Shown here in pieces: positions 5,374 to 60,324 of a stretch of 64,000 nucleotides of DNA (its first letter is position 1; the number at the start of each line of letters is the position of its first letter). The notes beneath the pieces are model-generated. The model was not told where the DNA came from. It worked only from the letters and a program-made list of their open reading frames with translations, and did no database searches. The position numbers and the translations under genes were made by a program. Origin of the DNA: Octopus vulgaris (lineage: Eukaryota); contig OX597826.1 in NCBI GenBank assembly GCA_951406725.2, positions 25,482,001 through 25,546,000 of the forward strand. Direction: 5' to 3'.

Positions 5374-5780
5374 AGGCGCAAGCGTGGTTGTGTGGTGAGA
5401 AGCTTGCTTCCCAGTCACGTGGTTCCGGGTTCAGTCCCACTGCGTGACATCCTGGTTATTTTCTACTATAGCCTCAGGCCGACCTGTGAAGGGATTTGGC
5501 AGAGGGAAACTGAAAGAAGCCTGTCATATTGTGTGTGTGTGTGTTTGTGTACATGCGTGCGTGTGTCTGTGTTTGTGTTTGAACCCCCATCACCACTTGA
5601 CAACCGGTGTTGCTATGTTTACGTCCCCGTAATTTTGCGGTTCGGCGAAAGAAACCGATAGCATAAGTGCTAGGCTTAAAAAAAGAAACGAGTCCTGGGG
5701 CCGATTTGTTCGACAAAAACTTTCAAGGCAGTGCTCCTGCATGACCACATTCAAAGGACAGAAACAAGTGAAAGAATAGT
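5374..5780 (+). mobile_element. SINE family A
   Basis: Head aggcgcaagcgtggttgtgtgg, B box ggttcagtccc, body and tail match 1416-1905. Confidence 0.88.
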
Positions 5781-8070: not shown

Positions 8071-8236
8071 CTATTTCTTTACTACCCACAAGGGGCTAAA
8101 CACAGAGAGGACAAACAAGGACAGACAAACGGATTAAGTGCGTAACTGGTACTTAATTTATCGACCCCGAAAGGATGAAAGGCAAAGTCGACCTCAGCGG
8201 AATTTGAACTCGGAACGTAACGACAGACGAAATACG
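8071..8236 (-). mobile_element. SINE family B (Tx1-type tail), 3' part of the copy interrupted by the LINE
   Basis: Body and tail match array units at 21001-21570; the missing head is at 13502-13564. Confidence 0.9.
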
Positions 8237-8439
8237 AATTTCTTTATTGCCCACCGGGGGCCAAACATAGATATGGACAGTACAACTGATGGGATCAGTG
8301 AATCGATATGATTTTACCGAATGGAATACACAATACAAAAACAATGCAAATGAAGCGATGATCAGGTTACGCTCCGACCCCACAAGCCCCGATCTACCGC
8401 TGATACCTTTTTTTTTTCCCGTCTATTCACACGGTTCCT

Positions 8440-11400
8440 TGCACGCACAACACTCGTGCAACATGCTTCCATCTCTTTTGGAACGTACACTCCGACAGAC
8501 ACCTCTTCTCCAGCCACAGTTTCCTTTTCAAATGAAAAGAAAAAAAAGATCGTAAATTGTGGCCAGAGATAAAGTTGCCTGTCTTAATTCCTTTTATCCT
8601 AGTCTTCCATACTGCCTCTTTTGCTATTGCTACAACCGTGAGAAAACAATTCTTACCTTCGTTCGTTAGAACTCCTGGTGGGTCAATTTTTATAATCGAC
8701 TCAGTCGACAGCTGTACTCTTCCTTCATTTCAGTTATCTCCGGACACTGAACAATAGCGTGAGGGACGGTTTCCCTGTCCCCCACGCAACTTGGACAAGT
8801 CGGCGACTGACGTTTACCATGTCTTGCGAGCTTATCCCAAACGGGCAAGGCACCTCTGTAGCATTGCCAGGTTAAGGACTTTTGGAAGTTGTCCAACGTT
8901 CTCAACCCGAATGTACGATGGAACAGGCTGTCCAGTTGAATAAATCCGAAATCTAGAGTCGACCCCAGACCATCGTCGCATTCAGACTCTACCAACCCAC
9001 TATATAAAATCCGTGTGGAACCCCCACCGGTGGCGTTGCCCGAGCGCCGGAACAGCAAGAGGGCCTTACGGCACTCTTTATGCCACTCACTCGACCTCGG
9101 TCTACGAGAACACCAGGCTTCCTGTTCGCAAAAACTCTTGAACTCAGGGAACATTTGTCTGGCTAGCGGAGACCACACCCGTTCACTATCCAGGAGAATC
9201 CAGAGGTGCCTCAACCTCAACGCATGTCTGCGCATCCTTAACCAAGGCATCCCTAAACCTCCCTTTAAAGGCTTTTGACAGCAGACAGAGCGTTTCACAA
9301 GTGGCGACCTGCCCTTCCACAAAAAGCGAAAGAGCTGTCTCTCCAACCTGATCAACCACAAATCCGGACAGGGCACGACGGTCAGGCGGTAGGTAATGAC
9401 CGATGCGATAAACACATTGGCCACCTCCGCTCTCCATTTCAGGGATAGCCACCGCCAAGACCAGGTCTTGACTACTGCAGCCACCCTGCTCAATACCTCC
9501 GTCCAGTTCTTTTCTATCTGGAGGCCTGGTCCAAACCAGACTCCCAGCAACTTAACCGGTCCCTCCGTCCAGCGCCCAACAACGCTGTCTGAAGGCATCG
9601 ACTTGCCAACCCAGGTGCCGAGCTGCAAGCCGACCGACTTTTCCCGGTTAATCTTTGCTCCTGCTACCTCCTCGTAAGCCTCAATAGTCTTACCTACTTC
9701 ACGTAGGCGTGCTACTCTGGTTACACTGATAGTGATATCATCCGCGAAAGCCGTAATAAACTCCTCTAGTCCTGGTTCTCTCGGGATGCCACTCAACCTT
9801 CGCAGTAATGGCTCGAGAGCCATCACATACAAAAGTGGTGAAAGCGGACATCCTTGACGAACCGAGCGTTTGATGCAGAACGGCTTCGAAAGGAAACCGT
9901 TCACCCGAACTATTGAGTCAATGTTGTGGTACAAAGCGATAAACCCTCTGAGGAAGCCAAGACCCAGGCCAAACCGCGCAAGTACAGTCGCTAGGTATCG
10001 ATGGTCAACCCTATCAAAAGCTTTAGACTGGTCCAAATGCACCAATGCCCCACCTTTGCCAGATTTATTACCAACCTTCTCTATGGTATAGCGAATAAGA
10101 TGGAGGGTATCCTGAATGGTTCTGCCTGGGTTGGCACATGTCTGTGCCTCCCCGACTATACCATTCGCGACACGCGCCAACCTTTTTGCTAGAACCTTGG
10201 TCAAAATCTTCACTTCTGCGTTTAACAGAGTGATGGGCCTGAAATTCTCTAGAACGTCCCCCTTATCCGGGTCCTTTCTGACCAACGTCACTACTCCCCG
10301 GCGCACAGATCTGGGGATAAACCCATTCTGTTTCCAGTTCGCGTACACGTCAGTCAGTAGTTGCCCGAACAAGTCTGGCATATATTTATACAGCTCGTAC
10401 GGAAGACCATCAAGTCCCGGCGACTTACCCGCTTTACAATCGGCCAAAGCCTCCATCACCTGCTCAGGCGTGATTGGCCCTTCGCAAGACTCCGCATCCG
10501 ACCCCGAGAGGCACGGCAGCCCGGCAAGAAAGTCCTCGAGGGCTCTCCCACCACCAGGACCGCCGTCACCTCCGAACAGCTGGACGAAGTACTCCCGAAA
10601 GACCTCACACATTTTCTCGGGTTCGTTTACCAAGACACCATTTTGATTCGTCAAAGACCGAATAGAGGAACTATTTCCTTGCCTAGCTTCCACCACTCGG
10701 GCCCATCCAGCAGCCTTGATTCCTTCACTTTCCATTGCACGTAACTTAGCTCTGGCAATACTTCCCATGTGGTGGGCTTCAAGATGCTGGTTTAACTCCA
10801 GTCTTTTCACCCTCGCTTGGTCTGCATTACCAGTCCTCCAGGCTTCTTCTAGTTCCTTAACTAGACCATCTCCTATTTTACGTCCCTTCTTAGCTAAACT
10901 TATGCAAAACCTAATAGACTCATATTTGATGGCTCTTTTTAGGGCCTACCACCACTTGTTATTAATGATGGTACTTGTTAATGCCCTCTGTATTAACATC
11001 TTGATCCGCTTTCTGTACTCCCCAATCGCCAAAAGGGACGTATTGAGTTTCCAGTAGCCAGATCCCTGTCTATGCAACTTATCTACCGTCAGTTTACAGG
11101 TAACCATCTTGTGGTCACTGTAGCTGACTAGAAAAAACTGTGGACACTCAACTATGGACTTATCTTTTTCTCTAATTAAAATCCTATCTAGATATGTTCT
11201 GGTAGACCCGTCACTATTTGACCACGTCCACTGTGGAGTGTTCGGGTGCTCCAACCTATATGAATCTGCTAGCTGAAATTGACTTAGTATATCACGAAAG
11301 CCTGGGTTACATTTTCTGTTCATGTTCGAGCTCGAGCCAACACAATCTGTGTGCTGCACATATTGTATTAAAGTCTCCTAACAGTACTAGTGAATGCGAC

Positions 11401-11794
11401 GTGGCTAGGAACTTTCCCAGGTCACGAAAATATTCAGTTTGCGGGCCAATAATGTTTGGTGCGTAAATAGTGACTAGCCTGATTGTCTTGCCACAACTGA
11501 ATGTCAGGTCAAGAACGACCAACCTGCCTTCTGGGTCAGAAAAACCAACTTTTTCTCGGCTACCCGGTTTCTTTTTAGTAGGACCAACACCCCACCCCCA
11601 CCTCCTGCCCGACTCGGAGAAACGTATTTCTCGTAGCCGTTCAGGAGGGGGAGCAGATCTCTTGGCCCCTTCACCCGGGTTTCCGTTGCAACAATTACAT
11701 CCAAATTTCTCGACCTGATGTCATTTAGAAAGCGTCCTTGCTTCCAGCTTGACATCAGGCCACGGACATTTATACAACCAATGTGAATAGACAT
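8440..11794 (-). pseudogene. LINE ORF2: APE endonuclease, reverse transcriptase and CCHC finger
   Basis: EN motifs INVRGL, ATETR, IYAPN, LGDFN, YLDRI, SDH, YWKLN split across three ORFs (two frameshifts, stop at 10946); 706-aa ORF 8690-10810 has KSPGLDG, FRPITLLN, DQSKAFDRV, RQGCPLSP, FADDI and CPSC...ETVPHAIVQC; further lesion near 8730. Confidence 0.95.
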
Positions 11795-11805
11795 GACTAA
11801 TCTGT

Positions 11806-13109
11806 TTAATCAGGATTGTCCGGAGGAGGGGGACCCTCCACCTTTTTTTGATCCAGGGTCGGAGGTGGACGGTCTTGGGAAATAGATTTGTCAAAATCCC
11901 GTCTCACCACCGACACAGAATTATCAGGTGGAGGGGGAGTCTCCACCTTTTCCTTTTCTCGCGGGATCGGGGCTGGTAATCCATGAAATATCGACTTGTT
12001 AAAATTTAATTTCATTGAAGATACTGTCTTTCTGTATTTGTTTTGTAAAATTCTATGAATCTTATTTGAGACTTCATATACGTCGTAATTGATAAATTCC
12101 TCTGAAAGGTAATCTTTTTTTTACAGTCTTTATCAGTTGAATGTCTCTCATTAGCTCAGTATCTTTAGTGTATACGGCTAGTATGCTTTTTCCTCTTCTG
12201 GCAGTCTTTTTTGGTCGTTGTTCTGTAGTAGTCGCCGCTCTCGGTTGAGTTGCTGGTTGTATTTTCCTTTTGTTTGTTGTTTTTTTCTCATCTTTTTCTT
12301 CTTTTTCTTCTTCCTCTTTGTCTTTTTTCTCCTCTTCCTCCTCTTCCTCATTTTCCTTGCAGTTCCTTCGAATGTAGTCTAATTGACCACATTAAAAAAC
12401 ATCGAGGTTTTCGACCTTCAACAAACACCACGAGGCTCTCCTCTCCTACCTCAATTGTCTCGGGAATTGCTTGAATTATTTTAGGGTCCGCTTGAATGAG
12501 GAGATTAATTGTTTGACCATCCCAGTGTGCGTTTTCGGTAGCGGTAGCCTGGAGGAGAGTAATTTTTTCTTCCTCTTTGATTAGGACTGCCACCTACAAC
12601 AACATAGCGTCCACTTCCGGTGGGACCCTTGTAATTTTTATTCTGGACGTTCTCATCCCCATATAGGTGGGAATGATCTCCTCGTCGTTCGTTTTCAGTG
12701 TTTCTACTGAGTTCTTTTGTGCTATTTCTTTATTGGTGAACCTTACTTCCACCGTTCTGAATTTCTTGCCTCTTCTCAGATAAACTACGTCGCCCCATAT
12801 TGGCTTTAAGCACTTTTCTATTTTCTCTTCTGACATTCTTTCAATTTTTCTTTTTTGTAAACAATATGTTTTGAAAATTAATGTTTTTTGTTTTTCTTGT
12901 AGTAACTTTTCCGGAGGTTCAATTTTCACAACGTTGTCAGTTATTTTCATCATTTGGCTGTATTTCATAAAGTCTCTCTTATTCGTCGAAAGCAGCCGGG
13001 TTCCACCCCCAGCTGCTAACGCAAAACTTTTTTTCTCATTTTTTGGTTCTGTCTGGATGCTAGGTACATCAATCATTCTTTTCGACACAATGCCCTTGTT
13101 CTCTGGCAA
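11806..13109 (-). pseudogene. LINE ORF1 (Tx1-type nucleic-acid-binding protein)
   Basis: ORFs 12594-13109 and 12348-12593 are in frame, separated by one TAG; frameshifted zinc knuckle CFxCGQLDYIRRNC near 12360-12405; Lys/Glu-rich and Pro-rich C-terminal part. Confidence 0.85.
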
Positions 13110-13501
13110 AGTCGGAAACTCTTCTGGTGAAACTCTTCTGACGAGCTTTCAGACACATCTCCAAAAAAATCAAATATATTATCCATTCTGCTATTCCTTC
13201 TTGTAGCGGGAGAAACCCTTATTTCCCTGTCTGTAGTTGGCTCCTCGCGGACATGTATTTCCTCCTCTGAACAGGAGAAACACATATTTCTGCTCCAACG
13301 GTAGGCTCCTTGCTAGACAACATTCTTCCCCCCAAAGGGGGAATGAACAACGCGTGCTACTACAAGCACTAAGTGTTTTCAAATGAAAACTCCAACAGTT
13401 AAGTTATTCAACAATTTAACAATAAACAACAGTTATTAGAAACAGCAGTTATTAACAATATTAACTCCAAGAAACAGTAATTTTTACCACGAACACATGT
13501 G

Positions 13502-13564
13502 CGGCAGACGAAATACGGCTACGCATTTCGTCTGACGTGCTTACGTTTCTGCCAGCTCGCCGCC
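13502..13564 (-). mobile_element. SINE family B 5' head (A-box half) upstream of the LINE
   Basis: Reads ggcggcgagctggcagaaacgtaagcacgtcagacgaaatgcgtagccgtatttcgtctgccg on the minus strand. Confidence 0.92.
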
Positions 13565-14395
13565 TTATCACCAACAGTCTGTTCTACTGGGATTTCACAC
13601 GTAAAAAAGTCAAGTGGACGGATTTGCACCGATCTCAACGACGAGCTCTCTGGTGTTAGATCAATCAAACTGAGTGTACTCGCTTATCCGGTACACTTCC
13701 ACTTATCTGGTACTCAAATAATCACAACTCTCAAGCAACCGGCACCTAGGAAAAGTAGGTGGAGGAGATAAAAGAACGAATACGTGTTGTTTATTAATCA
13801 AGAGAACTTATGCTAATTTATGCTAATTTATGTTAATTGACATTAACAGAAACTTTTAGCTCGGTGCAGCATTTTCTTTTACAGTATTTACTAGACCTGT
13901 ATGTTATCTTTTTTATGTTTTATTTTTTACTTGTTAGACTGCGACCTTGCTGGGGCACCACCTTGAAAGGCATAGTCGAACAAATCAACATTAGTACATG
14001 TTTTATTTTTGAAGTTTGGTACTAATTTTATCGGTCCCTTTTACCGAACCGCCAGTTTACAGGGACGTAAACAAACAAACATCGGTTGTCAAGTGGTGCT
14101 ACGGAAACAAACAGAATGGTACGCACACATGTATGTATGCACGTATGCATGTATGTATTATGTTGTATGTGTATATCTTTCAGCTTTTAGTCATTTGACC
14201 ACAGCCATGCTGGGGCACTACCTTGAAGATTTTTAGTCGAATGAATCGACCCCAGTATGTATTTTCCCTAAAGCTTGATACTCATCGGTCTCTCTTCCGA
14301 ACTGCTAAGTTATGGGGACGTAAACATACCAACACTGCTTAAACACAGATACAAAGATATATATATATGCTATATATATATATATATATATATAT

Positions 14396-15715: not shown

Positions 15716-16114
15716 AATATTTCGTCTGCCGCTACGTTCTGAGTTCAAATTCCGCCGAGGTCGACTTTGCCTTTCATCCTTTCGGGGCCGATTAAATAAG
15801 AACCAGTTATGCACTGGAGTCGATATAATCAACTTAATCCGTTTGTCTGTCCTTGTTTGTCCCATCTGTGTGTAGCCCCTTGTGGGCAGTAAAGAAATAA
15901 GAAACGTTAGCACACAGGGCGAAATGTTTAGCGGTATTTCGTCTGCCGTTACGTTCTGAGTTCAAATTCCACCGAGGTCGACTTTGCCTTTCATCCTTTC
16001 GGGGTCGATAAATTAAGTAGCAATTGCGCACTGGTGTCGATGTAATCGACTTAATACCTATGCCTGTCCTTGTTTGCCCCCTCTATGTTTAGTCCCCTGT
16101 GGGCAATAAAGAAA
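15716..16114 (+). mobile_element. SINE family B dimer (Tx1-type tails) following a family A head at 15635-15712
   Basis: Two bodies joined at aaagaaata|agaaacgttagc (~15900). Confidence 0.9.
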
Positions 16115-16254
16115 TTTATATTGTCAAACGCATACCAGTCACCATCTCACCATGTGTTTTTTTTTTCTCTCCTCTTTTTGGATACTGTGGACTATATATA
16201 TAATCGGGCGTGGCTGCTATTTCTAGTTCGTCGATTGACAATTCATAGTTCTCT

Positions 16255-21000: not shown

Positions 21001-21570
21001 CGGCGAAATGCCTAGCGGTATTTCGTCTGCCGTTCACCCTGAGTTCAAATTCCGCTGAGGTCGACTTTGCCTTTCATCCTTTCGGGGTCGATAAATTAAG
21101 TACCAGTTACGCACTGGGATCGATATAATCGACTTAATTCGTTTGTCTGTCCTTGTTTGTCCTCTCTGTGTTTAGCCCCTTGTGGGTAGTAAAGAAATAG
21201 GTATTTCGTCTGCCGATACGTTATGAGTTCAAATTCCGCCGAGGTCGACTTTGCCTTTCATCCTTTCGGGGTCGATTAAATAAGTACCAGTTATGCACTG
21301 GGGTCGATATAATCGACGTAATCCGTTTGTCTGTCCTTGTTTGTCCTCTCTGTGTTTAGCCCCTTGTGAGTAGTTAAGAAATAGGAATTTCGTCTACCGC
21401 TACGTTCTGAGTTCAAATTCCGCCGAGGTCGATTTTGCCTTTCATCTTTTTGGGGTTCGATTAAATTAGTGCCAGTTAATCACTGGGGTCGATGTAATCG
21501 ACTTAACCCCCTTGTCTGTCCTTGTTTGTCCCCCTCTATGTTTAGCCCCTTGTGGGCAATAAAGAAATAA
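21001..21570 (+). mobile_element. SINE family B head-to-tail trimer, 184-bp period
   Basis: Units restart at gtatttcgtc (21201) and gaatttcgtc (21385) straight after aagaaatag. Confidence 0.95.
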
Positions 21571-22780: not shown

Positions 22781-22889
22781 TCCCCAAGATATCACTTGAG
22801 AATAACTGAGAATGTTTCTCTTTCTCAACTTCTATTTGTATTGTATTTTTTTCTTAGAAATTTCAAAGAGATTAAACAGAGCTATAATC

Positions 22890-23270
22890 TTTTCTACTCT
22901 TGGCACAAGGCCCGAAACTGTTTGGGGAGGGGGGGGGCAGTCGATTACATCGGCCCCAGTACACAACTCGTACTTAATTTATCGACTCGGAAAGGATGAA
23001 AGGCAAAGTCGGCCTCAGCGGAATTTGAACTCAGAACTTAAAGACAGATGAAATACCGCTCAGCCTTTCGCTCGGCGTGCTAAAGTTTCTTATTTCTTTA
23101 TTACCCACAAGGTGCTAAACATAGAGGGGACAAACATGGACAGACAAAGGGATTAAGTCGATTACATCGACCCCAGTGCGTAACTGGTACTTAATTTATT
23201 GATCCCGAAAGGATGAAAGGCAAAGTCGACCTCGGCAGAATTTGAACTCAGAACGTAACGGCAGACGTAT
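22890..23270 (-). mobile_element. SINE family B: Tx1-tailed copy abutting the head of a tail-ii copy
   Basis: Junction aaagaaata|agaaactttagcacg at ~23090. Confidence 0.88.
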
Positions 23271-23499: not shown

Positions 23500-24280
23500 G
23501 TTTCAAATCATGGTAGCAACTTTTGTGGTAGTGGGTAGGGCAAGCCGACTGCATCGGCCTCAGTATTTGATTGGTACTTATTTTATCGACTCCTAAAGGA
23601 CGAAAGCCAAAGTTGATCTCAGCAGTATTTGAACTCAGATTGCAAAGAGCTGGAAGAAATGTGACTATGTATTTTGTCCAGCATGCTAAATATTCTTATT
23701 TCTTTATTGGCCACAAGGGGCTAAACATAGAGGGGACAAAGAAGGATAGAAAAAGGGATTAAGTCGATTACACCGACCCCAGTGCGTAATTTATTGACCC
23801 CGAAAGGATGAAAGTCAAAATTGACCTCGGTGGAATCTGAATTCAGAACGTAACGACAGACGAAATACCTATTTCTTTACTACCCACAAGGGGCTAAACA
23901 CAGAGAGGACAAACAAGGACAGACAAACGGATTAAGTCGATTATATCGACCCCAGTGCGTAACAGGTACTTATTTAATCGACTCCAAAAGGATGAAAGGC
24001 AAAGTCGACCTCGGCGGAATTTGAACTCAGAACGTAGCGGCAGACGAAATACCTATTTCTTTATTACCCACAAGGGGCTAAACATAGAGGGGACAAACAA
24101 GGACAGACATAGGTATTAAGTCGTGTACATCGATCCCAGTGCGTAACTGGTACTTAATTTATCGACCCCGAAAGGATGAAAGGCAAAGTTACCTCGGCGG
24201 AATTTGAACTCAGAATGTAGCGGCAGACGAAATGCCGCTAAACATTTCGTCCGGCGTGCTAACGTTTTGGCCAGCTCACT
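23500..24280 (-). mobile_element. SINE family B: Tx1-tailed trimer (23696-24280) joined to the head of an older tail-i copy
   Basis: Internal junctions at 23869 and 24053 (184 bp apart); final junction at ~23696. Confidence 0.92.
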
Positions 24281-24292
24281 ACTTTAACAAGA

Positions 24293-25584: not shown

Positions 25585-26180
25585 AGGCAGGGGTGTGGCT
25601 GTGTGGTTGAGGCGCTTGTTTCCAACCACAATGTTCTGAGTTCAGTCCCACTCTGTGGTACCATGGGCAAGAGTCTTCTACTTTAGCCTCAAGCCGACCA
25701 AAGCCTTATGAGTGGATTTGATAGAAGTCCATCCGGTCATTTCAATATGTGACCGCTTGTGTATCGTTGGCGATTTTCTTTCTCTGTCTTCCCTTCTTTG
25801 GTCTTTTTCTATATTTCTGATGAAGAGCTCCGCTCGAAACGTGAAACCATCTTTCTTTCTTTCCTTTCCTGAGCGTCCAATAACACAATACTCGTTCCAC
25901 GTCCTCGCGTTGTTTTTTCCTGCTTGTTCTTGTTTGGATTGATTGTATATGTGTGTGTGTTTGCGTGTGTATCTATGCTTGTCCTCCAAAACCGCTTGAC
26001 AACCGGTGTTGGTACGATTATGTTCCCGTAAATTAGCGGTTCGGCAAAAGAGTTCGATACAATAAGTTTCAAGCTTTAAAGAAAAATAAGTATTGGGGTC
26101 GATTCATTCCACTAAAAATTCTTCAAGGCAGTGCACCAGCATGGCCGCAGTCTAATGACTGAGACAAGTAAAAGCTAGAA
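25585..26180 (+). mobile_element. SINE family A interrupted by a hammerhead-bearing element
   Basis: Head to gagtggatttgataga (~25725), resumes after 25945. Confidence 0.85.
25730..25945 (+). mobile_element. Short Penelope-like non-autonomous element with a minimal hammerhead-like motif
   Basis: CTGATGA(25817) a gagc tcc gctc GAAA cgtga; homologous copies at 44363-44560, 28870-28970, 49220-49315. Confidence 0.7.
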
Positions 26181-29061: not shown

Positions 29062-29661
29062 CTATTTCTTTACTACCCACAAGGGGCTAAATACAGAAGA
29101 GACAAACAAGGACAGACAGACGGATTAAGTCGATTATATCGACCCCAGTGCGTAACTGGTACTTAATTTATTGACCCGGAAAGGATGAAAGGCAAAGTCG
29201 ACTTCAGCGGAATTTGAACTCAGAACGTAACGACAGATGAAATATCTATTTCTTTACTACCCACAAGGGACTAAATACAGAGGAGACAAACAAGGACAGA
29301 CAGACGGATTAAGTCGATTATATCGACCCCAGTGCGTAACTGGTACTTAATTTATCGACCCCGAAAGGATGAAAGGCAAAGTCGACTTCAGCGGAATTTG
29401 AACTCAGAACGTAACGACAGATGAAATATCTATTTCTTTACTACCCACAAGGGGCTAAACACAGAGTAGACAAACAAGGACAGACAAAGGGATTAAGTCG
29501 ATTATATCGACCCCAGTGCGTAACTGGTAATTAATTTATCGACCCCGAAAGGATGAAAGGCAAAGTCGACCTCAGCGGAATTTGAACTCACAACGTAACA
29601 ACAGACGAAATCCCGCGAAGCATTTCGCTCGGCGTGCTAACGTTTCTACCAGCTCGCCGCC
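29062..29661 (-). mobile_element. SINE family B trimer with one complete head, 184-bp period
   Basis: Junctions at 29246 and 29430; head ggcggcgagctggtagaaacgttagcacg. Confidence 0.95.
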
Positions 29662-33539: not shown

Positions 33540-33815
33540 TTGTGTGTCTGTGTTTGTCCCCTAGCATTGCTTGACAACCAATGCTGGTGTGTTTACGTCC
33601 CCGTCACTTAGCGGTTCGGCTAAAGAGACCGATGAATAAGTACTGGGCTTACAAAGAATAAGTCCTGGGGTCGATTTGCTCGACTAAAGGCGGTGCTCCA
33701 GTATGGCCGTAGTCAAATGACTGAAACAAGTAAAAGAGAGTAAAAGAGTAACACTGAAGCAAAGTAACACCAAATATATAGTGCGTGTGTTTTTATTGGC
33801 TAAACTGGCAAAATG
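32433..33815. mobile_element. Inverted-repeat element in (AT)n with a hammerhead-like motif in each arm
   Basis: Arms 32510-32804 and 33123-33815 (right arm split by a SINE); cca CTGATGC g gtcac aggagt gtgac GAAA gaac TC tgg at 33278-33317. Confidence 0.85.
33356..33748 (+). mobile_element. SINE family A inserted in the right arm, TSD taaca
   Basis: The empty site is preserved in the left arm; taaca at 33351-33355 and 33749-33753. Confidence 0.93.
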
Positions 33816-59730: not shown

Positions 59731-59742
59731 ATATATATATAT

Positions 59743-59895
59743 ATTTCTTTATTGCCAAACATAGAGGGGCCAAACATAGAGGTGACAAACAAGGACAGAC
59801 AAATGAATTAAGTCGATTACATCGACCCCAGTGCGTATCTGGTACTTAATTTATCGACCCCGAAAGGATGAAAGGCAAAGTCGACCTCGGCGGAA
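59743..59895 (-). mobile_element. SINE family B, Tx1-type tail, 5'-truncated
   Basis: tttctttattgcc...gacaaacaaggacagac...aaagtcgacctcggcggaa. Confidence 0.88.
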
Positions 59896-60324
59896 CGGGA
59901 CTGTTAGCTTTCGTTGAACAACTGATGTCAGTGATGGGAAGGGTACACCTATCGGCTGAGTCTATCATCGAGATCGTGCCACCCCCTTCCCTTAGCAGGG
60001 AAAGGAAGGCCTGTTTTTTCTACCATACTGAAAGAAACCGTATGGAAGACACGTGTGAAAGGCATAGTGACAGGTACCTTAGTTATATATATATTGGAGC
60101 CTGCAATGCCGAATGGGTCCAATGGCTGACACACACTGCTACCCAAGGTGTACAAAAGGACATGCTGGACATCACATTGGTAGACAGGGGGGGGGCGCCT
60201 CCGTGACCAAGCTTGTGGATGAGTAAGCCTGCTTTTGAAGAACACACACGCACACACACATACACATACGCACACACACATACACGCACACAGACACACC
60301 AGACACACACACACACATACACAC

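Follow-up and report, generated by a model that had tools for sequence, protein, structure and literature searches.

Target-specific insertion has been described for several long interspersed elements (LINEs). The closest known counterpart of the system described here, an L1/Tx1-like LINE inserted in a short interspersed element (SINE) within 64,000 nucleotides of the Octopus vulgaris genome (contig OX597826.1, positions 25,482,001 to 25,546,000; the whole stretch is called the window below), comes from crocodilians. There, Tx1-Mar LINEs and the SINEU elements that they likely carry prefer a common site in another repeat (Kojima, 2015; PMC4494074). Published systems are compared here as the available parts of the cited articles describe them. 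Tandem copies of crocodilian SINEU-3 sandwich a duplication, some Tx1-Mar families have SINE-like heads, and a dependence on flanking transcription has been discussed (PMC4494074). The crocodilian target is a third element, Mariner-N4_AMi, whereas the octopus target is the passenger SINE itself. Moreover, SINEU lacks a LINE-like tail, has a poly(A) end and was argued not to depend on RNA polymerase III (Pol III; PMC4494074), whereas the octopus SINE shares the tail of its LINE and forms headless arrays.

Other LINEs with an apurinic/apyrimidinic endonuclease (APE), namely Tx1L/Tx1D, Keno, Kibi and Koshi, also insert sequence-specifically into multicopy DNA. In contrast to the octopus SINE, their targets are a DNA transposon, U2 genes and microsatellites, which the LINE does not multiply (as summarised in PMC4494074). 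In R2Ol, 28S target sequence carried at the ends of the RNA makes the 3' start more accurate and is related to the structure of the 5' junction, a precedent for target-derived flanks that help integration (PMC6795142). R2 differs in its restriction-like endonuclease, its ribozyme and its essential-gene target, and the second open reading frame (ORF2) of the octopus LINE is nearer to human L1 ORF2p. Head-to-tail arrays of SINE parts are known as SINE-derived satellites in squamates (PMC10702118) and as tandem SINEs in bivalves (PMC11481361). Those arrays were ascribed to unequal recombination, with no targeted LINE invoked in the available text; the octopus junctions, unlike them, fall at one base in some 30,000 places.

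Recent activity in an octopus has been reported for 13 L1-Tx1 families with 421 insertions, and SINEs are listed as very abundant (PMC13282606, PMC8967140). The available text of the octopus repeat papers reports the abundance of L1-Tx1 and SINEs without targeting (PMC13282606, PMC8967140, PMC9115989, PMC4758252, PMC4824008), and the annotations in the main text of two of them differ from the present account in giving no target preference, partner tail or array structure (PMC13282606, PMC8967140). Nothing on this LINE-SINE pair appears in the available text of three further articles (PMC3747384, PMC5786205, PMC9258296). The literature searched yielded no description of a LINE that targets its own partner SINE; Repbase entries or supplements may already note such a case. 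To our knowledge, the target-specific LINEs known so far insert into host genes, microsatellites or unrelated transposons. The octopus system is a variant of known Tx1-type targeting, new in its self-targeting passenger SINE.

One SINE base as the landing site of a LINE family

The same SINE base follows 29 of the 30 best LINE 3'-end matches (window copy included) and 29 of 30 exact LINE tails (the first 30 of 73). In a wider set, partly overlapping with the exact tails, 32 of the 37 copies that could be resolved lie on target. At the other end of the element, the SINE head and site stand before 28 of 30 LINE 5'-end loci. Exact junctions between LINE tail and site number 97 genome-wide (control 0), and exact target sites make up about 2.4e-5 of genome positions. 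Target preference in Tx1 elements has been defined as more than 20% of flanks in one repeat (PMC4494074), a level exceeded by both 29/30 and 32/37.

The insertions into the SINE were independent, because the LINE copies differ by about 1.5% while their host SINEs differ by 9-12%. Among 27 full-length copies, the median pairwise difference is 1.3% at the 5' end and 1.6% at the 3' end of the LINE, compared with 11.8% for the heads and 8.8% for the bodies; the host SINEs also vary in unit number and tail type. Three truncated copies that lie off target (L068, L075, L143) have duplications of their own (16-18 bp), and the 3' end of the LINE is therefore fixed at the tail. Targeting of the SINE site by the LINE is near certain, and the genome-wide, target-specific LINE-SINE system is real. 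The first-pass annotation of the window recognised a LINE nested in a SINE and missed the main point, which is that the insertion site is the specific target of the LINE family. The locus in the window is arranged as follows:

13518..13564, reverse strand: SINE head (5' part) with an A-box-like motif at 13544-13554; the same head as before 28 of 30 LINE 5'-end loci
13505..13534, reverse strand: 13-bp inverted repeat with a 4-nt loop; the insertion point is the border of loop and 3' arm
13502..13517, reverse strand: upstream 16-mer of the site, whose last bases track the LINE lineage across the family
8237..13501, reverse strand: L1/Tx1-like LINE of 5,265 bp with intact ends on both sides and broken coding regions
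12015..13323, reverse strand: ORF1 region, in several frames here; CCHC zinc knuckle in natural copy L111
8430..11791, reverse strand: ORF2 region with APE endonuclease, reverse transcriptase and zf-RVT; interrupted here
8237..8271, reverse strand: LINE 3' tail without poly(A); 82% identity to the SINE tail over 34 nt
8221..8236, reverse strand: downstream copy of the 16-bp site
8199..8211, reverse strand: B box of the SINE
8072..8220, reverse strand: SINE body with its LINE-like tail; carries a 19-bp deletion

The LINE and both its ends were borne out, while the 16-bp target site duplication said to flank it is matched at 15 of 16 positions rather than at all 16 (8221-8236 and 13502-13517). 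The description as full-length likewise applies to the ends and not to the coding regions, in which the longest open stretch is 751 amino acids and ORF1 and part of the endonuclease are spread over several frames. Scripted removal of the LINE and one 16-mer restores a SINE, as had been claimed: the product is 212 bp long against a natural monomer of 232 bp, with 197 identities and one 19-bp deletion. Both flanks are likely to be one SINE copy; this part of the claim was not confirmed at the window locus, where the outer duplication around the host SINE is only 5 bp, compared with a duplication score of at least 9 in 13 of 20 testable sister loci. In public sequencing runs searched for an empty site, contigs from the unique flank end within the SINE head at 13544 in three of four runs, and a 99% search on the junction gave no locus-specific bridge across the LINE site. 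Joints that skip the 5.3 kb are uninformative on the empty site because any SINE copy can yield them. Short pieces spanning the head-LINE junction were found in two runs, one with another organism label; with fewer than 31 letters per side they are a hint only.

Young copies of the LINE hold long natural reading frames. Copy L111 has an ORF1 of 440 amino acids with a CCHC knuckle (PF00098, 23.2 bits, cut-off 20.8) and an ORF2 of 1,132 amino acids with an N-terminal APE endonuclease (PF03372), a reverse transcriptase (PF00078) and a C-terminal zf-RVT (PF13966). A CCHC zinc knuckle in ORF1 is typical of the Tx1 clade. The best solved relative of ORF2 is human L1 ORF2p (residues 4-866, E 9e-64), the R2 proteins being far weaker (E 4e-20), and a separate ORF1, target duplications and 5' truncations are present as traits of the L1 superfamily. 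Sequence searches with the LINE proteins gave unannotated Argonauta and Sepia proteins as the nearest named ones, and a named Tx1 reference was absent among the matches. Judged by sequence, the LINE appears to be L1/Tx1-like, with architecture and targeting that fit the Tx1 clade.

Several copies show further peculiarities. L062, L071 and L072 end 839-845 bp from the tail, with unrelated DNA upstream; in L062 a more diverged relative (55-72% amino acid identity) lies upstream. Inverted ORF1 sequence precedes the truncation point of L067, and L086 has a 38-bp duplication that extends to the B box. Two full-length LINE-in-SINE copies about 6.4 kb apart have near-identical flanks and are likely a segmental duplication (G000:C3:153112095-153123904).

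Duplication ends that follow the element

The apparent 16-bp target site duplication is often not a copy of the target, and its end bases follow the LINE lineage. The two 16-mers are identical in only 7 of 30 full-length copies, and their 42 variant positions comprise 3 that are shared, 20 that vary upstream only and 19 that vary downstream only. Upstream, position 14 is T in 15 of 20 copies of one clade but in 1 of 20 ordinary heads of matching type (p=1e-5); downstream, it is C in 13 of 14 readable copies of that clade. Directly after the LINE tail, 38 of 41 copies of the younger lineage have C and all 13 of the older one have G, despite the occurrence of both types among exact heads in the genome (C-type 16,953, G-type 20,130). 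In one truncated copy an A-type head upstream is combined with C downstream, and two older copies on different contigs have in common an unusual head variant of about 25 nt. The 15/16 mismatch at the window locus fits this family pattern, and the view of the 16-mer as a plain target duplication is contradicted in part by the few identical pairs and the lineage-bound end bases. An RNA with R2-like, target-derived arms is suggested as the source of the mismatched duplications. No subfamily marker tying head type to body was significant among 75 first units, and overwriting of the head therefore cannot be dated in that way.

The insertion site borders the loop of a 13-bp hairpin. Each base pair of this hairpin is kept in 64-85 of 85 heads. 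Its closing pair is T-G in 56 heads, T-A in 16 and G-C in 6, and the position beyond it is paired in 1 of 85. This conservation is suggestive only because the heads are related.

The SINE, its arrays and its putative promoter

Octopus SINEs named OK, OR1 and OR2 were reportedly described by Ohshima and Okada in 1994. In the SINE considered here, the tail is 82% identical to the last 34 nt of the LINE, a shared 3' end that is the usual mark of a LINE-SINE partner pair and would make these two elements partners. Dispersed copies have target duplications and the LINE-shared tail, as in a tRNA-derived SINE. The A and B boxes rest on motif likeness because no tRNA was called in the head by ARAGORN (window) or Rfam (one intact copy). 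The SINE may resemble the MetaSINE superfamily, in which a 66-bp Meta domain directly follows the tRNA region. At dispersed and nested SINE 5' ends (L190-L201, L232-L251), 1-4 extra bases, mostly AA, lie between duplication and head.

Genome-wide, 95,589 exact SINE tails were counted. Headless junctions of SINE tail and site have G as the first base in 30,049 cases and C in 335, compared with 100 head-duplicating SINE-in-SINE junctions; the exact search patterns vary in stringency, and ratios between these counts are rough. After the inner SINE tail, 7 of 11 distinct head-duplicating loci that were fetched resume at the site, and these 7 represent plain SINE-in-SINE insertions with duplications near 16 bp. 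Off target, duplications of 12-22 bp (mostly 16-17) were found in 22 of 58 terminal SINE copies (shuffles 0-2; about four doubtful), often beginning with a GGTAT-like motif. An apparent template bias in these duplications (10 vs 1) was discounted, since it came mostly from doubtful low-complexity calls.

Arrays were studied in 148 SINE loci, including 53 arrays, chosen to enrich for arrays. A second tail type occurs in none of 100 inner units yet is the last unit of 18 of the 53 arrays, and the last units are the most diverged (0.088 vs about 0.05); both observations are expected if new units land directly behind the head. The form with the other tail (L061, L062, L069, L070, L071, L086, L102; window 22887-23056) has the same head and core and is seen solely as last array unit. 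It is likely an older form with another partner LINE. Four arrays in the window illustrate the two junction types:

23698..24283, reverse strand: three-unit SINE array with one head, 184-bp period and junctions at the LINE's site
29064..29661, reverse strand: three-unit SINE array, 184-bp period
21018..21568, forward strand: three-unit SINE array, 184-bp period
15717..16115, forward strand: array of two SINE units whose junction is at a second site, within the A box; 217-bp period

The second recurrent junction, within the A box, was counted in 2,033 exact cases with a 217-bp period (in the window at 15898-15934 and 23056-23092). A LINE lineage for this site was sought and rejected: of 21 matches, 20 were retrieved; 17 of these proved to be SINE tails, and the other 3 had no ORF match. 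Some off-target SINE insertions begin with the same motif as the A-box junction. Head-only tandem repeats with a period of 64-69 bp were also seen; they comprise up to 8 copies and stop at the target site (G000:C10:17996024-17996504; C13:69036077-69036320). Elsewhere in the window, a headless SINE body on the reverse strand directly adjoins a short forward-strand fragment that is 52% like the ORF2 C-terminal region (59738-60020). A second dispersed short repeat family has about 14 copies or pieces in the window (5607-5743, 13914-14345, 26006-26160, 33576-33726 and about nine more) and short motifs in common with the first SINE.

The first-pass annotation placed the insertion between the A and B boxes and expected a LINE there to silence the Pol III promoter and a SINE to keep it. 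The placement is correct: the A-box-like motif (13544-13554) and the B box (8199-8211) lie on the same strand on either side of the insertion point, 51 nt apart in the empty site. The LINE parts the boxes by 5.3 kb, with the first run of four T at LINE nucleotide 113, whereas an array has one head with the site and a B box behind it, spaced as in the original SINE; no such run occurs in 124 of 163 units. No substitute B box was found at a fitting distance in the LINE 5' end, where the one weak match, at nucleotide 154, lies past the first T run. This geometry fits a silenced promoter in LINE-split copies and arrays that could be transcribed by Pol III. Promoter disruption by the LINE would be no limit on the SINE family, because about 100 LINE junctions stand against more than 95,000 exact SINE tails.

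Mechanism and rival explanations

We think it probable, with some room for doubt, that the LINE family inserts at one fixed SINE base by target-primed reverse transcription and also mobilises that tail-sharing SINE. The LINE is thus likely both to carry the SINE and to use it as a landing pad, and the SINE likely inserts into itself at the same base because it is mobilised by the LINE that targets this base. The direct basis for this account is the shared site, the shared tail, the independent insertions, the 16-17 bp duplications of off-target and head-duplicating copies, and the end bases that follow the element. The endonuclease would make a staggered cut of about 16 bp at a GGTAT-like motif, with its best match at the hairpin apex of the SINE head. 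An RNA that starts within the host head and ends beyond the tail would carry target sequence at both ends. Its 3' extension could pair with the nicked strand, and at the 5' arm the complementary DNA could anneal to the target head. The same seamless 5' joining of SINE RNA would give one head followed by headless 184-bp units with the A-B spacing kept, and would help to explain why head type is unlinked to body variants; local duplication afterwards may extend some arrays. Such RNA arms are likely.

A more far-reaching version, which we put forward tentatively and rate at somewhat below even chances, is a closed loop in which the LINE multiplies its own target, host-SINE sequence at both ends of each RNA guides the next insertion to the same base and SINE arrays become new masters. 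Site choice would then be partly RNA-templated and heritable by lineage, and self-insertion would build Pol III read-through arrays that serve as new masters, with heads shuffled against bodies.

How much of this requires RNA is the point at issue with a simpler rival, in which the endonuclease alone sets the target, duplications are ordinary and each master once captured a few target bases that have stayed fixed, without ongoing co-transcription. Targeting, the 16-bp stagger and the GGTAT-like off-target motif require no RNA pairing, and a distal head variant (at about position 19) is independent of the LINE tree, which confines overwriting to the neighbourhood of the site. Such a capture is simpler than RNA arms; it is nevertheless improbable in our judgement, since the lineages differ in their target-derived ends (1 base at the 3' end, 3 to about 25 bases at the 5' end) and headless arrays exceed head-duplicating insertions about 300:1 (exact counts, with patterns of differing stringency). 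This excess calls for homologous 5' joining or later recombination. Recombination or slippage through the short GGTAT-like repeat, as the sole source of the arrays and with no SINE-in-SINE insertion, is the route proposed for other SINE arrays (PMC11481361, PMC10702118, in their available text) and agrees with the near-identical units of L153, L155 and L165 and with smaller distances within arrays. We hold it to be highly unlikely, because neither the mixed arrays, with the other tail never among 100 inner units and last in 18, nor the head-duplicating insertions with 14-19 bp duplications could arise from one duplicated monomer.

The fixed site might also be inherited rather than targeted, if a single insertion of the LINE into a SINE had made head, LINE and body mobile as one unit. 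Outer duplications around the whole unit in 13 of 20 loci, the weak correlation of LINE and body distances, and truncated copies with a body and no head would all suit such a composite element. Flanks six to eight times more diverged than the LINE would not, nor would bodies that hold both alleles at several polymorphic sites and differ in tails and unit numbers; the truncated copies L081 and L086 directly abut a head, and no clear outer duplication surrounds any of 11 headless truncated copies. The composite is accordingly given little credence. Chance nesting of an untargeted LINE, for which the sheer abundance of the SINE (95,589 exact tails) might speak, is refuted by the 97 exact junctions (control 0) and by 29 of 30 exact tails on site, where the expected share is far below 1 in 1,000; almost no weight is left to it.

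Some observations do weigh against the account of targeting and self-insertion favoured here. Distances of the LINE and of the downstream body are weakly correlated (Mantel r 0.35-0.40, p 0.006-0.03), which could also come from shared locus age. In eleven 5'-truncated copies the 3' side abuts the target site, with no head upstream and no clear duplication; 3' transduction was considered as their source and rejected, as none of the 11 has a clear outer duplication. Five of the 37 resolved LINE copies, mostly more diverged ones, are off target. Units are closer within an array (0.050) than between arrays (0.092), and many junctions are therefore duplications, not insertions. Finally, among the first 30 exact SINE tails, 12 were assigned to the site, 2 of these being look-alikes that are off target; a further 2 tails lie at the A-box site, and the remaining 16 (18 with the look-alikes) are off target. 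Specificity thus looks looser for the SINE than for the LINE.

For the poorly understood step of 5' joining in an APE-type LINE, the mismatched "duplications" provide a natural record, and the young copies with long natural reading frames make that step testable. In such genomes both apparent target duplications and SINE family counts can mislead. By mobilising the SINE that it targets, the LINE would make a safe harbour of its own, an ecological arrangement unlike that of the known target-specific LINEs; tens of thousands of SINE arrays in one genome would then have an explanation.

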